Assembly: GCF_013315695.1 (NCBI RefSeq)
Contig: NZ_CP054353.1
DNA: 64,000 nt
From: Escherichia coli
GTDB lineage: Bacteria; Pseudomonadota; Gammaproteobacteria; Enterobacterales; Enterobacteriaceae
Reading direction: 5' to 3' (one strand)
Part shown: positions 104-49,560 of the stretch, one piece after another
Layout of the letters: each line of letters opens with the position of its first letter
Position numbering within the stretch: position 1 is the stretch's first letter
Notes under the pieces: model-generated
What the model was told of the DNA's origin: nothing
The model's input: only the letters and a program-made list of their open reading frames with translations
Databases searched by the model: none
Translations under genes and position numbers: made by a program

Positions 104-1291
104 ATGAACTTATCCCTACGACGCTCTACCAGCGCCCTTCTTGCCTCGTCGTTGTTATTAACCATCGGACGCGGCGCTACGCTGCCGTTTATGACCATTT
201 ACTTGAGTCGCCAGTACAGCCTGAGTGTCGATCTAATCGGTTATGCGATGACAATTGCGCTCACTATTGGCGTCGTTTTTAGCCTCGGTTTTGGTATCCT
301 GGCGGATAAGTTCGACAAGAAACGCTATATGTTACTGGCAATTACCGCCTTCGCCAGCGGTTTTATTGCCATTCCTTTAGTGAATAACGTGACGCTGGTG
401 GTGCTCTTTTTTGCCCTTATTAACTGCGCCTATTCCGTCTTTGCTACCGTGTTGAAAGCCTGGTTTGCCGACAATCTTTCGTCCACCAGCAAAACGAAAA
501 TCTTCTCAATCAACTACACCATGCTCAACATTGGCTGGACCATCGGTCCGCCGCTAGGCACGCTGTTGGTGATGCAGAGCATCAATCTGCCCTTCTGGCT
601 GGCAGCTATCTGTTCCGCGTTTCCCATGCTTTTCATTCAAATTTGGGTAAAGCGCAGCGAGAAAATCATCGCTACGGAAACAGGCAGTGTCTGGTCGCCG
701 AAAGTTTTATTACAAGATAAAGCACTGTTGTGGTTTACCTGCTCTGGCTTTCTGGCTTCTTTTGTTAGCGGCGCATTTGCTTCATGCATTTCACAATATG
801 TGATGGTGATTGCTGATGGTGATTTTGCCGAAAAGGTGGTCGCGGTTGTTCTTCCGGTGAATGCTGCCATGGTGGTTACGTTGCAATATTCCGTGGGCCG
901 CCGCCTTAACCCGGCTAACATCCGCGCGCTGATGACAGCAGGCACCCTCTGTTTCGTCATCGGGCTGGTCGGTTTTATTTTTTCCGGCAACAGCCTGCTA
1001 ATGTGGGGTATGTCAGCTGCGGTATTTACTGTCGGTGAAATCATTTATGCGCCGGGCGAGTATATGTTGATTGACCATATTGCACCGCCAGGAATGAAAG
1101 CCAGCTATTTTTCCGCTCAGTCTTTAGGCTGGCTTGGTGCGGCGATTAACCCATTAGTGAGTGGCATAGTGCTTACCAGTCTGCCGCCTTTCTCGCTGTT
1201 TATCATCTTAGCGTTGGTGATCGTTGCTGCGTGGGTGCTGATGTTAAAAGGAATTCGTGCAAGACCGTGGGGGCAGCCCGCGCTTTGTTGA
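104..1291 (+). CDS. ydeE: MFS-type transporter YdeE
   Basis: 395-aa ORF with multi-TM hydrophobic profile; sits immediately upstream of mgtS/dgcZ as in E. coli. Confidence 0.85.
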   Translation: MNLSLRRSTSALLASSLLLTIGRGATLPFMTIYLSRQYSLSVDLIGYAMTIALTIGVVFSLGFGILADKFDKKRYMLLAITAFASGFIAIPLVNNVTLVVLFFALINCAYSVFATVLKAWFADNLSSTSKTKIFSINYTMLNIGWTIGPPLGTLLVMQSINLPFWLAAICSAFPMLFIQIWVKRSEKIIATETGSVWSPKVLLQDKALLWFTCSGFLASFVSGAFASCISQYVMVIADGDFAEKVVAVVLPVNAAMVVTLQYSVGRRLNPANIRALMTAGTLCFVIGLVGFIFSGNSLLMWGMSAAVFTVGEIIYAPGEYMLIDHIAPPGMKASYFSAQSLGWLGAAINPLVSGIVLTSLPPFSLFIILALVIVAAWVLMLKGIRARPWGQPALC

Positions 1292-1417
1292 TTTAAGTCG
1301 AACACAATAAAAATTTAATTCAGCCTTCGTTTAGGTTACCTCTGCTAATATCTTTCTCATTGAGATGAAAATTAAGGTAAGCGAGGAAACACACCACACC
1401 ATAAACGGAGGCAAATA

Positions 1418-1513
1418 ATGCTGGGTAATATGAATGTTTTTATGGCCGTACTGGGAATAATTTTATTTTCTGGGTTTCTGGCCGCGTATTTCAGCCACAA
1501 ATGGGATGACTAA
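1418..1513 (+). CDS. mgtS: small inner-membrane regulatory protein MgtS (31 aa)
   Basis: ATG at 1418; reads MLGNMNVFMAVLGIILFSGFLAAYFSHKWDD then TAA; below the 60-aa ORF-track cutoff, found by direct reading. Confidence 0.8.
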   Translation: MLGNMNVFMAVLGIILFSGFLAAYFSHKWDD

Positions 1514-1543
1514 TGAACGGAGATAATCCCTCACCTAACCGGC

Positions 1544-1579
1544 CCCTTGTTACAACTGTGTACAAGGGGCCTGATTTTT
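1544..1579 (+). terminator. putative rho-independent terminator downstream of mgtS
   Basis: inverted repeat ccccttgta / tacaagggg followed by a T-run. Confidence 0.5.
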
Positions 1580-1588
1580 ATGACGGCG

Positions 1589-1686
1589 AAAAAAAACCGC
1601 CAGTAAACCGGCGGTGAATGCTTGCATGGATAGATTTGTGTTTTGCTTTTACGCTAACAGGCATTTTCCTGCACTGATAACGGATC
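1589..1686 (-). ncRNA. mgrR: MgrR small RNA (PhoPQ-regulated); ends approximate
   Basis: minus strand reads GCAGGAAAATGCCTGTTAGCG...CCGCCGGTTTACTGGCGG followed by a U-run (hairpin terminator); matches MgrR as I remember it; convergent with mgtS. Confidence 0.55.
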
Positions 1687-1731
1687 GTTGACACAGTAGC
1701 ATCAGTTTTCTCAATGAATGTTAAACGGAGC

Positions 1732-2622
1732 TTAAACTCGGTGAATCACGTTTTGTTCGTCAATAAACATGCAGCGATTCCTTCCGGTTTGCTTACCCTC
1801 ATACATTGCCCGGTCCGCTCTTCCAATGACCACATCCAGAGGCTCTTCAGGAAATGCGCGACTCACACCTGCTGTCACGGTAATGTTGATATGCCCTTCA
1901 GAATGTGTGATGGCATGGTTATCGACTAACTGGCAAATTCTGATACCTGCACGACATGCTTCTTCATCATTAGCCGCTTTGACAATAATGATAAATTCTT
2001 CGCCACCGTAGCGATAAACCGTTTCGTAATCGCGCGTCCAACTGGCTAAGTAAGTTGCCAGGGTGCGTAATACTACATCGCCGATTAAATGCCCGTAGGT
2101 ATCATTAACCAATTTAAATCGGTCAATATCCAACAACATTAAATAAAGATTCAGAGGATCAGCATTGCGTAACTGATGATCGAAGGATTCATCAAGAACC
2201 CGACGACCCGGCAATCCCGTCAGAACATCCATATTGCTACGGATCGTCAGCAAATAAATTTTGTAATCGGTTAATGCCGCAGTAAAAGAAAGCAACCCTT
2301 CCTGAAAAGCGTCGAAATGCGCGTCCTGCCAGTGATTTTCAACAATAGCCAGCATTAATTCCCGACCACAGTTATGCATATGTTGATGGGCAGAATCCAT
2401 TAGCCGAACGTAAGGTAATTCATCGTTATCGAGTGGCCCCAGATGATCAATCCACCGACCAAACTGGCACAGTCCATAAGAATGGTTATCCGTTATTTCT
2501 GGCTTACTGGCATCTCTCGCGACCACGCTGTGAAACATACTTACCAGCCACTGGTAGTGGGCATCGATAGCCTTATTGAGATTTAACAAGATGGCATCAA
2601 TTTCCGTTGTCTTCTTGATCAT
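1732..2622 (-). CDS. dgcZ: zinc-sensing diguanylate cyclase DgcZ (YdeH), GGDEF domain
   Basis: RYGGEEF motif in the C-terminal half; 296 aa when started at MIKKTTEIDAILLN; synteny. Confidence 0.9.
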   Translation of the reverse strand: MIKKTTEIDAILLNLNKAIDAHYQWLVSMFHSVVARDASKPEITDNHSYGLCQFGRWIDHLGPLDNDELPYVRLMDSAHQHMHNCGRELMLAIVENHWQDAHFDAFQEGLLSFTAALTDYKIYLLTIRSNMDVLTGLPGRRVLDESFDHQLRNADPLNLYLMLLDIDRFKLVNDTYGHLIGDVVLRTLATYLASWTRDYETVYRYGGEEFIIIVKAANDEEACRAGIRICQLVDNHAITHSEGHINITVTAGVSRAFPEEPLDVVIGRADRAMYEGKQTGRNRCMFIDEQNVIHRV

Positions 2623-2876
2623 TGCCACTCCTTTTTCACAGTTCCTTGTGCGCGCTATTCTAACGGGAGAAAAGCAAAATTACGTCAATATTTTCATAGA
2701 AATCCGAAGTTATGAGCCATCTCTGAGATAACATTGTGATTTAAAACAAAATCAGCAGATAAAAAAGTGTTTAATTCTATAAATTAACTCTGCATTATCG
2801 CAATTAAAAGGATGACAAATAGCATAACCCAATACCCTAATGGCCCAGTAGTTCAGGCCATCAGGCTAATTTATTT

Positions 2877-3269
2877 TTATTTCTGCAAATGAGTGACCCG
2901 AACGACGGCCGGCGCGCTTTTCTTATCCAGACTGCCGCTAATGTTGATCATCTGGTCCGGCTGAACTTCTCGTCCATCAAAGACGGCCGCAGGAATAACA
3001 ACATTAATTTCACCGCTCTTATCGCGAAAAACGTAACGGTCCTCTCCTTTGTGAGAAATCAAATTACCGCGTAGTGAAACCGAAGCGCCATCGTGCATGG
3101 TTTTTGCGAAATCAACGGTCATTTTTTTTGCATCGTCGGTTCCGCGATAGCCATCTTCTATTGCATGAGGCGGCGGTGGCGCTGCATCCTGTTTTAAACC
3201 GCCCGGGTCATCTGCCAACGCATAAGGCATGACAAGAAAACTTGCTAATACAATGGCCTGAAATTTCAT
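2877..3269 (-). CDS. ydeI: periplasmic OB-fold (YgiW/BOF family) protein YdeI
   Basis: 130-aa ORF with N-terminal signal peptide ([19 protein letters not shown]); synteny. Confidence 0.8.
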
Positions 3270-18801: not shown

Positions 18802-21704
<2,903 letters not shown>

Positions 21705-33504: not shown

Positions 33505-33775
33505 GATGTTACCGTAGTATGTGAGTACCCATCGAATAGACACCAAGCAAAAAAGCTCCCGAAGGAGCCTTCATTTTCACTTTTTTAAATCCAACGACAG
33601 ACGGCTGGCATTTAAGTATTGTGAAATATTATCAAATGTAATCATCATTGATTTACAAAAGATACATTTTGCCCCGAAAGGATTCATGTCAGAAACATCA
33701 AAAGATGATGTTCTATACTGGGAACCATGACAACACGGGCATCTAAAGTGAATATGGTTTGTAATATTGTCTACC

Positions 33776-33988
33776 TCAAAGCGCCACTACATGAACAGCG
33801 GCAGGACCTTTAGGTCCGTTCTCAATACCAAATTCAACTTCCTGATTCTCAGTTAATGTTTTGAAATCGTTGCTCTGAATTGCTGAGAAATGGACAAACA
33901 CATCTTTGCTGCCATCTTTCGGCGTGATGAAACCAAAACCTTTTTCAGGGTTAAACCATTTCACTAAACCAGTCATTTTGTTAGACAT
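33776..33988 (-). CDS. cspI: cold-shock protein CspI
   Basis: 70 aa; [38 protein letters not shown]... (CSD fold). Confidence 0.9.
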
Positions 33989-34353
33989 AATTATTACCTT
34001 TTGAAGAAATTAGCCCTTGGGCAGAATGGTCCGAAAAAAAATATCAGAGAGAAAAACCAACAAGGAAATCTCAAGAGGTACAAATAATAAAATTATAACA
34101 ATGACTGCTTCAGATAAATTTGTAACAAACCAGAACACCATTAACGCATGATTAACCACCCATAGCAAGGATTACTTTTGTAAAGAAAAACACAGCAATG
34201 AAAGAATAGCTTTATTTATTAATAAAACGTGTCATTCTGATTAAGACCTTTTATCTTACCCTTAAGATTTCAGGAATTTTGGCTCATGGAAGAGTCCTTT
34301 TTATTTAAATTTTACATTCCGCGATGTAAATGTTCCGATTTAATATTACCCTA

Positions 34354-36295: not shown

Positions 36296-36658
36296 TTGAT
36301 TTTATTAGTAACAAGTATTTTTTATATTTTAATAATATATTTAAAGCAGATAATAAAAAACCCGCCTGAGCGGGTTTGAGATTGTGGTGCTTTTTGTGGG
36401 AGTCATCCACTTACGCACTTTGTTTTGCCATGCCAGCAGTTAGCTTCTGCTGTAAAACTATTCATGCAGCAAACCTGCACTTCACCACAATGGTTAGCAT
36501 ACTTTTCCTGATTAAGATTTTGCCAAATATGCTAGCCATTGTTTCATGTATTGGACCTCCTTACTTTTTATTAAAGAGATCCAATATTCACTACTCTGTC
36601 CGTATCTCTACTCAGGCATCAGCCTTCTTCGTTATCGTATACAGACGAGCGATGAATT

Positions 36659-36874
36659 TTAATCAGTAATGATGACATTTGCTGCTGCAGGACCTTTAGC
36701 ACCACTCTCTATAGAGAAGGTAACCTTTTGACCTTCAAATAAGGTTCGATAATTATCATTCTGAATCGCAGAAAAATGCACAAACACATCTTTACTACCA
36801 TCAACAGGAGAAATAAAGCCGAAACCTTTATCAGCGTTAAACCATTTTACTAAACCAGTCATTTTATTTGACAT
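36659..36874 (-). CDS. cspB: cold-shock protein CspB
   Basis: 71 aa; [34 protein letters not shown]... Confidence 0.9.
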
Positions 36875-37174
36875 TCTACATTCCTTAACTTGAGCCTTTC
36901 GGCATAAATGGTTTGCATAACAGAAACGACTTCGTACTTAATTGGAGAGACTCAAAGAAGGAATAAGTGAATAACACCTGAAATGAGAACTGCTTTAGTA
37001 AACTACTTCGTATATCGTCTGTTCTTCAAACCGACGCAATCATTAACGCATAGTTGAACATATGAAGCAATGTTTATTTTAGACATCCAGCCATCTTCAA
37101 CCCCATCAAAAAACTATAGCTTTCTTCAGGAACGTGTGTATAGTGCGCCAAGTTATCAGTATTAAGGAATTTTT

Positions 37175-43807: not shown

Positions 43808-44141
43808 GAAAAATCCCCCAGAGAATTGTCTGGGGACATTTTAGAATGGTTCAAAGGGGACATTACAGCTTGGTGTTAACAATAGCCTGCTTCTCCGTGC
43901 CTTTCGGCACGTAAGAGGCTAACCTACATGTGTCTAGCATGAAATTGGCCTCAGATTAATGTTAAGCGTCTTGCAGGACGCGTAATGTTAACTGGGGCTT
44001 TTCTCTATCTGCCGTTGGTGTCCATGCCCGAGGCAGATAGCCTCAAGCACCCGCAGTCATTCTACTTAACTAAGATTTCCCCGCAAACCGTTTTTGTCCA
44101 GCACAGTAAATATCCAACTAAACCAATGGAGTTCGCTGTAT

Positions 44142-49502: not shown

Positions 49503-49560
49503 TTTCTGGTGACGTTTGGCGGTATCAGTTTTACTCCGTGACTGCTCTGCCGCCCTTTTT
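49503..49560 (+). ncRNA. dicF: DicF small RNA (cell-division inhibitor, ftsZ antisense)
   Basis: TTTCTGGTGACGTTTGGCGGTATCAGTTTTACTCCGTGACTGCTCTGCCGCCCTTTTT: hairpin plus U-run, matches DicF as remembered. Confidence 0.8.

Follow-up and report, generated by a model that had tools for sequence, protein, structure and literature searches.

Two small genes that face each other across a few nucleotides may end their transcripts independently, or they may run into and regulate one another. Which of these holds is the question raised by a locus near the start of the 64,000-nt stretch of E. coli DNA analysed here (the window). A sequence-only reading of the window had described a 31-codon gene, mgtS, and an opposing small RNA (sRNA) gene, mgrR, closed by back-to-back hairpin terminators about 10 bp apart, and it held both to be regulated by PhoPQ. 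We therefore ask which locus this is, where its RNAs end, and whether the two units are insulated from each other.

The interval in question, 1418-1686, runs exactly from the mgtS start to the 5' end of mgrR. Window positions were converted to those of NC_000913.3 (MG1655 RefSeq) with a fixed offset of 1621228. In this reference, mgtS (b4599) lies at 1622646-1622741, which is 1418-1513 of the window, and mgrR (b4698) at 1622817-1622914 (-), which is 1589-1686. The reference annotation thus puts mgrR exactly where the sequence-only reading had, and not elsewhere. A third annotated gene, mgtT (b4775), occupies 1513-1617 (+). Gene order, orientation and offset coordinates of K-12 mgtS (yneM, b4599), mgtT (b4775) and mgrR (b4698) are equal to those of the window, and the two loci are separated by strain-level polymorphism only, with 4 of 269 positions differing. 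The difference at 1474, within mgtS, is synonymous and leaves the MgtS protein identical; those at 1555-1556 fall in the loop of hairpin 1 and give the single MgtT substitution V15T; and that at 1683 is nucleotide 4 of MgrR, its single substitution. As the window strain is not K-12, the experimental data cited below are carried over from K-12/BW25113. Segment 1250-1800 is 100% identical to several complete E. coli genomes, and of the 5426 complete genomes of this species, 5416 carry it. No evidence contradicting the identification was found, and this is the known E. coli low-magnesium (PhoQ/PhoP) locus between ydeE and dgcZ. It has an annotation in the reference genome and a literature of several papers, and practically all E. 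coli have it; its genes, their regulation, the RNA ends and the additional small ORFs have all been published already, and nothing reported here is new. That neither gene appears in the ORF track, as had been remarked, fits their nature: with 31 codons mgtS is below the usual 60-aa cut-off, and mgrR is non-coding.

Features of the mgtS-mgrR locus, in order of window position.
Feature	Position in window	Strand	Description or basis
ydeE	104-1291	+	Flanking gene
Putative PhoP box, mgtS promoter	1317..1333	+	AATTCA-N5-CGTTTA
Candidate extended -10 of mgtS	1343..1351	+	TGcTAATAT; from sequence
CDS58	1365-1418	+	17-codon upstream ORF MKIKVSEETHHTINGGK; same sequence as PIRT-Seq 'CDS58'
mgtS (formerly yneM)	1418-1513	+	31 aa, small inner-membrane protein
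mgtT (b4775)	1513-1617	+	34-aa ORF, MG1655 annotation
Hairpin 1 with interrupted U-tract, GGGGCCUGAUUUUUAU	1540..1581	+	Intrinsic terminator of main mgtS transcript
MgrR intrinsic terminator (hairpin 2)	1589..1615	-	8-bp GC-rich stem, 1615 to 1596; U8 tract to 1589
mgrR (b4698)	1589-1686	-	98-nt Hfq-dependent small RNA
MgrR base-pairing seed region U55-A68, UAUCCAUGCAAGCA	1619..1632	-	Position from PMC6239178, mapped to window
A-rich (ARN-type) Hfq-binding stretch of MgrR, AAAAGCAAAACACAAA	1635..1650	-	Sequence
MgrR 5' stem-loop (nt 5-35)	1652..1682	-	Folding, alignment
Candidate mgrR -10 hexamer	1693..1698	-	TACTGT; from sequence, alignment
mgrR PhoP box	1722..1737	-	GTTTA-N6-GTTTA; at -51 to -36 from annotated 5' end
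dgcZ	1732-2628	-	Flanking gene

On the plus strand, the ORF at 1418..1513 has 31 codons and the translation MLGNMNVFMAVLGIILFSGFLAAYFSHKWDD. MgtS is a protein that stabilises MgtA and modulates PitA. The window protein matches Pfam PF22865 over positions 1-31 of 31 with 88.2 bits (cut-off 27), and the NCBIfam equivalog NF033842 end to end with 80.6 bits (cut-off 35). Together with the MG1655 annotation, these matches bear out the 31-codon mgtS placed at 1418 by the sequence-only reading. Its pN/pS of 0.07 indicates strong purifying selection, and pairwise diversity among 18 orthologs is concentrated at the third codon position (0.054, 0.029 and 0.223 for the three positions). The gene evolves as a protein-coding gene.

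Upstream of mgtS, the putative PhoP box lies 12 nt from an extended -10 element. The box is degenerate, with half-site matches of 3/6 and 5/6, and the ortholog alignment shows a PhoP-box-like repeat, AGTTCA-N5-TGTTTA, in Citrobacter; we assign it tentatively, from its position and conservation. The -10 element is conserved as TGCTA(A/C)TAT in the alignment of Escherichia and Citrobacter, which would put the mgtS transcription start near 1358-1359. PhoQP-dependence of mgtS has been reported (PMC11429745, PMC3536696, 10.1101/2021.06.30.450655). A scan of the locus for sigma-70 consensus promoters found none. For PhoP-activated promoters that have no -35 element, no hit is expected, and this result is uninformative. 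Further upstream, a terminator-like hairpin at 1266-1282 (+), CGTGGGGGCAGCCCGCG followed by CTTTGTTGAT, lies within the last ydeE codons and precedes the putative PhoP box by ~35 bp; by it, the number of ydeE transcripts that continue into mgtS may be reduced.

On the minus strand, the window matches the RNA family RF01407 (STnc560, the Salmonella name for MgrR) with 280.2 bits against a gathering score of 55, over model positions 1-214 and with all helices formed. This match and the position of b4698 bear witness to an mgrR sRNA opposing mgtS, as had been proposed. The model covers 1720-1507 (-) of the window; the annotated RNA spans only 1686-1589. Beyond MgrR, it takes in promoter-proximal sequence, the spacer, the opposite-strand hairpin 1 and the junction of mgtS stop and mgtT start. 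RF01407 matches therefore overstate the extent of the gene, as the 214-nt model is wider than MgrR, whose length is 98 nt (PMC6239178). Further along the window, other Rfam families score above their gathering scores, namely isrC, two cspA-type thermoregulator leaders, the sok antitoxin RNA and DicF (21084-21206 (-), 33749-34134 (-), 36643-37035 (-), 43881-44052 (-) and 49504-49555 (+)); together these matches suggest cryptic-prophage (Qin-like) sequence there.

To compare MgrR among relatives, orthologs were retrieved by an exact-match scan of genome contigs with a 20-nt MgrR core as the probe, so that this 20-mer necessarily looks invariant in the resulting alignment. In the 20-sequence alignment, the 5' stem-loop has 90% of its cells paired and one pair changed on both sides. 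The seed region and the A-rich stretch are invariant in 20 of 20 orthologs, an invariance that is partly forced, as the probe covers the A-rich stretch for the most part and reaches five bases into the start of the seed. The ARN-type motif of MgrR has been described previously, as have its Hfq dependence and its repression of eptB and ygdQ (PMC6239178, 10.1101/2021.06.30.450655). The candidate -10 hexamer of mgrR lies 7 nt upstream of the annotated 5' end and is kept as TAnnnT in Citrobacter. The exact GTTTA-N6-GTTTA box upstream of it is the sole match in the 64-kb window, where ~0.1 would be expected by chance (by our own arithmetic), and its proximal half-site is conserved in orthologs. Allowing one mismatch, the pattern occurs 5 times in the window against 4 expected and is no commoner than chance, so only the exact box upstream of mgrR carries weight. 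PhoP dependence of mgrR is documented (PMC6239178, PMC3536696, 10.1101/2021.06.30.450655). Convergent transcription and PhoP dependence of the pair are likewise described in the literature (PMC11429745, 10.1101/2021.06.30.450655, PMC6239178, PMC3536696), with 'directly activated by PhoP' as the wording of PMC3536696, which supports the PhoPQ regulation that the sequence-only reading had given for both genes.

We next consider where the two converging transcripts end. Arms 1541-1550/1562-1571 form hairpin 1, extended by three pairs on the inside and by C1540-G1573 on the outside; next comes GAUUUUUAU, in which the T-run 1575-1579 gives a U5 tract interrupted by GA. The folding energy of hairpin 1 is -21.9 kcal/mol (z -4.6), a value reached by 0 of 200 shuffles, and that of hairpin 2, the terminator of MgrR, is -13.7 kcal/mol (z -2.75). 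The distance from stem to stem is 22 nt (1574-1595). With the T-tract ending at 1579 and the A-tract starting at 1589, 9 nt lie between the two, so the spacing of about 10 bp had been a fair estimate. A simple terminator scan, expected to return 0.8 matches by chance in 700 bp, called hairpin 2 and missed hairpin 1, as the apical part of the latter exceeds the loop limit of the scan; hairpin 1 was detected by repeat search and folding. Among 20 distinct orthologous sequences, 93% of the cells of hairpin 1 are paired and four pairs are changed on both sides, against 22-52% pairing in slid controls, and the MgrR terminator is 100% paired in the 20 sequences.

Short ORFs and inverted repeats are common, and with 0.8 terminator matches expected in 700 bp, one might regard the hairpins and the small ORF as functionless chance features of an intergenic region. 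The probability of this is practically nil. It is refuted by family-model scores far above their cut-offs, by the folding z-scores of -4.6 and -2.75, by covariation, by purifying selection on mgtS, by near-universal presence in E. coli and by published experiments. A bidirectional terminator was also considered and rejected, as neither hairpin carries a U-tract on both strands; the flanks on the other side are GUUAGG after hairpin 1 on the minus strand and GAAUGC after hairpin 2 on the plus strand. As in convergent pairs with one shared bidirectional terminator, only a few nucleotides separate the ends of the two units, but unlike in such pairs, each unit in the window owns a hairpin.

RNA 3' ends mapped by Term-seq in K-12 (tables of Adams et al. 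2021, PMC7815308 supplementary file 1) agree with this anatomy. On the plus strand, a 3' end at 1622804, corresponding to window 1576, is present in 2 of 3 lists, and on the minus strand ends at 1622824/1622819, corresponding to 1596/1591, are present in 3 of 3; no other 3' end is recorded within K-12 1622600-1622999 (PMC7815308). As these K-12 ends fall at the two hairpins, both hairpins mark real RNA ends. The back-to-back terminators of the sequence-only reading are therefore sustained at each level, both hairpins being found, folded and conserved, with Term-seq 3' ends in both U-tracts. The main convergent 3' ends are 14-19 nt apart in K-12 and do not overlap, and the MgrR signal is ~500-1000x that of the plus strand (2.4-5.3 million versus 2.6-10 thousand).

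Term-seq shows steady-state 3' ends, however, and alone cannot separate termination from 3' processing. Hairpin 1 might then serve mainly to stabilise or process the 3' end, or to bind Hfq as a module within the mgtS 3' UTR, and not as a terminator, with the end at 1576 left by exonucleolytic trimming of longer mgtS-mgtT transcripts. The imperfect U-tract of Escherichia and the annotated, translated ORF that crosses hairpin 1 are consistent with this. Yet a strong GC-rich stem with a U-run directly after it is the canonical anatomy of an intrinsic terminator, orthologs carry perfect U7-U8 tracts, compensatory changes maintain the pairing of the stem, and no plus-strand 3' end is recorded downstream. 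We consider it quite unlikely that processing is the main role of hairpin 1, and we continue to read it as the intrinsic terminator of the main mgtS transcript.

The translated ORF mentioned above is mgtT. The sequence-only reading had the gene identities and the arrangement right, but it was incomplete, omitting both mgtT (1513-1617) and CDS58 (1365-1418). As mgtT spans 1513-1617, the gap in which the back-to-back terminators lie has a coding annotation of its own in E. coli. MgtT matches Pfam PF23498 over positions 1-34 of 34 with 93.3 bits (cut-off 27). The gene was found in K-12 by Ribo-RET/Onc112 profiling and SPA tagging (10.1101/511675) and detected again by PIRT-Seq (PMC12350097). Reportedly, mgtT is PhoQP-dependent as part of an mgtS-mgtT operon, MgtT is not a membrane protein, and neither deletion nor overexpression of mgtT gave a phenotype (PMC11429745). 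At the TAATG junction (1511-1515), the ATG of mgtT shares the A of the mgtS TAA. From there, mgtT crosses hairpin 1, has its stop codon (1615-1617) inside the MgrR terminator, and overlaps mgrR by 29 nt (MgrR nt 70-98). The main mRNA 3' end at 1576 falls in codon 22 of mgtT. Terminated mRNAs therefore carry an mgtT without a stop codon, and would in E. coli be substrates of tmRNA, and full-length MgtT requires read-through of hairpin 1. Since full-length MgtT was detected, some read-through probably occurs.

CDS58 is joined to mgtS in the same manner, its TAA overlapping the mgtS ATG as TAATG. It is listed in supplement file 5 of PMC12350097, with a weak western signal. Its frame is not kept in the Citrobacter alignment, and its ATG is only ~6 nt from the predicted mgtS transcription start.

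We then compared the locus across relatives. As an exact match was required, the MgrR core led to Escherichia, Citrobacter, S. arizonae and one Raoultella MAG only; MgtS, searched exhaustively with phmmer, added five more loci with divergent MgtS, L024/L025 and L027/L029 being pairs with identical MgtS protein. The loci carried into the comparison were L023, L024, L026, L027 and L029. Among the retrieved contigs, one labelled as a Caldithrix sp. MAG (SMXE01000224.1) shares 98.7% identity over positions 1-399 with the mgtS-mgrR region of E. coli; almost certainly, this is contaminating E. coli DNA that was binned with a Caldithrix genome assembled from a metagenome. The STnc100 sRNA (RF02076, 78 bits) was observed at 2710-2891 (-) of L023 (GCA_900116535.1), ~1 kb from mgtS. 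In Escherichia, Citrobacter and Salmonella arizonae the two genes are convergent neighbours, and so they are in four divergent MgtS loci besides. The one exception among the loci compared is C. amalonaticus, which has mgrR without an adjoining mgtS: at ~644-785 of its contig (L020), mgrR comes with a terminator and PhoP-box-like upstream sequence, no mgtS or mgtT stands beside it, and a different hairpin with a T-run occupies their place.

At L027 (783-830) and L029 (1626-1678), 5 nt separate the mgtS stop from the A-run with which the MgrR terminator begins on this side, and neither hairpin 1 nor an mgtT-like ORF was found. The MgtS of these loci is called with 41 aa, of which a 31-aa core starting from an internal ATG is the likely protein. 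As no second hairpin is present there, that of MgrR is the sole candidate terminator for both genes, and one hairpin appears to serve the convergent pair.

A start codon overlapping the mgtS stop is found in every Escherichia, Citrobacter and Salmonella locus having mgtS, as well as in L023 and L024, and as GTG in L026; the junction reads TAATG/TGATG, or TAGTG in one lineage. The ORF behind it varies from 8 to 66 codons across relatives and has no coding signature. It encodes 34 aa in E. coli and E. albertii, 30 aa in E. whittamii, 14 aa in most Citrobacter (with the stop in the hairpin loop), 9 to 66 aa in other Citrobacter and S. arizonae, 8 aa in L023, 33 aa in L024 and 29 aa, from the GTG start, in L026. 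The mgtT frame has a pN/pS of 0.42-0.66, without third-position bias, and conservation of MgtT as a protein was not found beyond Escherichia among the relatives examined. The window ORF is the E. coli form of MgtT, and its membership of PF23498 is unaffected by this poor conservation. As the downstream ORF varies or is absent elsewhere, the 34-aa MgtT is a feature of Escherichia; judged by this comparison of sequences, hairpin 1 and the convergent arrangement are older than it. One may speculate that the selected trait is re-initiation on the mgtS stop, with ribosomes running into or up to the hairpin, and not the MgtT peptide, an idea to which we give rather low odds.

The comparison also bears on whether the two units meet as sense and antisense RNAs. 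Transcripts reading through hairpin 1 would then pair with the 3' end or body of MgrR, RNase III would cut the paired RNA, and mgtS-mgtT and MgrR would regulate each other; ribosomes translating mgtT into hairpin 1 would perhaps help the read-through. In favour of this, mgtT overlaps mgrR by 29 nt, and the detected MgtT protein implies some read-through. However, the dominant 3' ends do not overlap, and as MgrR far exceeds the plus-strand signal, little of it could be titrated. An RNase III-dependent site at K-12 1622816 (window 1588), which its authors attribute to a previously described antisense RNA (PMC5371410), adjoins the MgrR 3' end and is compatible with occasional sense/antisense overlap, but those data are unstranded and cleavage in vitro failed (PMC5371410). 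The overlapping start codon is kept across genera though the ORF behind it varies, which speaks for such coupling; against it, mgtT deletion is without phenotype (PMC11429745), and L027/L029 do without hairpin 1 and the mgtT-like ORF altogether. Finally, the U-tract of hairpin 1 is interrupted in Escherichia (UGAUUUUUAU), whereas it is U7 in Citrobacter, a further point for coupling. Yet no correlation between ORF length and U-tract quality was seen across orthologs: L024 has a U8 tract and still a 33-codon ORF running through it. The idea of translation acting in anti-termination is therefore weakened. Taken together, mutual antisense regulation is unlikely.

The reading best supported is that of two separate PhoP-activated units, each insulated by its own intrinsic terminator, with a probability of roughly 94%. 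On the plus strand, a PhoP-activated promoter (putative box ~1317-1333, candidate -10 at 1343-1351) drives a short mRNA with up to three tiny ORFs, CDS58-mgtS-mgtT, chained by TAATG overlaps. Most of this mRNA ends at the hairpin of 1540-1573, near 1576 and inside mgtT, and a minority of transcripts would read through. MgrR (1686-1589) is made from another PhoP-activated promoter, on the minus strand (box 1737-1722, candidate -10 at 1698-1693); it binds Hfq and ends at its own intrinsic terminator. The two terminators keep the main convergent transcripts apart, and MgtS and MgrR act separately on magnesium-stress physiology. Of this scheme, the present analysis shows which genes are there and where, the hairpins with their covariation, and the conserved arrangement; PhoP dependence, the RNA 3' ends and the translation of mgtT and CDS58 are known from published work, and we infer the promoter elements, where mgtS transcription starts, and the read-through of hairpin 1. 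SgrS/SgrT and the synthetic MgtSR chimera likewise pair a small protein with a base-pairing sRNA of one regulon, both answering to one signal; the MgtSR chimera is one man-made RNA, and here the two are separate convergent transcripts (10.1101/2021.06.30.450655).

The locus also serves as a calibration case. A sequence-only reader located a 31-codon gene and a 98-nt sRNA with single-base accuracy, and the same reading overlooked two published tiny ORFs chained to mgtS via stop-start overlaps. A small point that is left concerns mgtT, a gene that crosses the terminator ending most of its own mRNA and is not conserved as a protein outside Escherichia, and the question it poses is whether the peptide or its translation is what is relevant. 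If re-initiation on the mgtS stop were indeed the selected trait, it could tune termination, read-through antisense to MgrR, or the fate of the mRNA 3' end.
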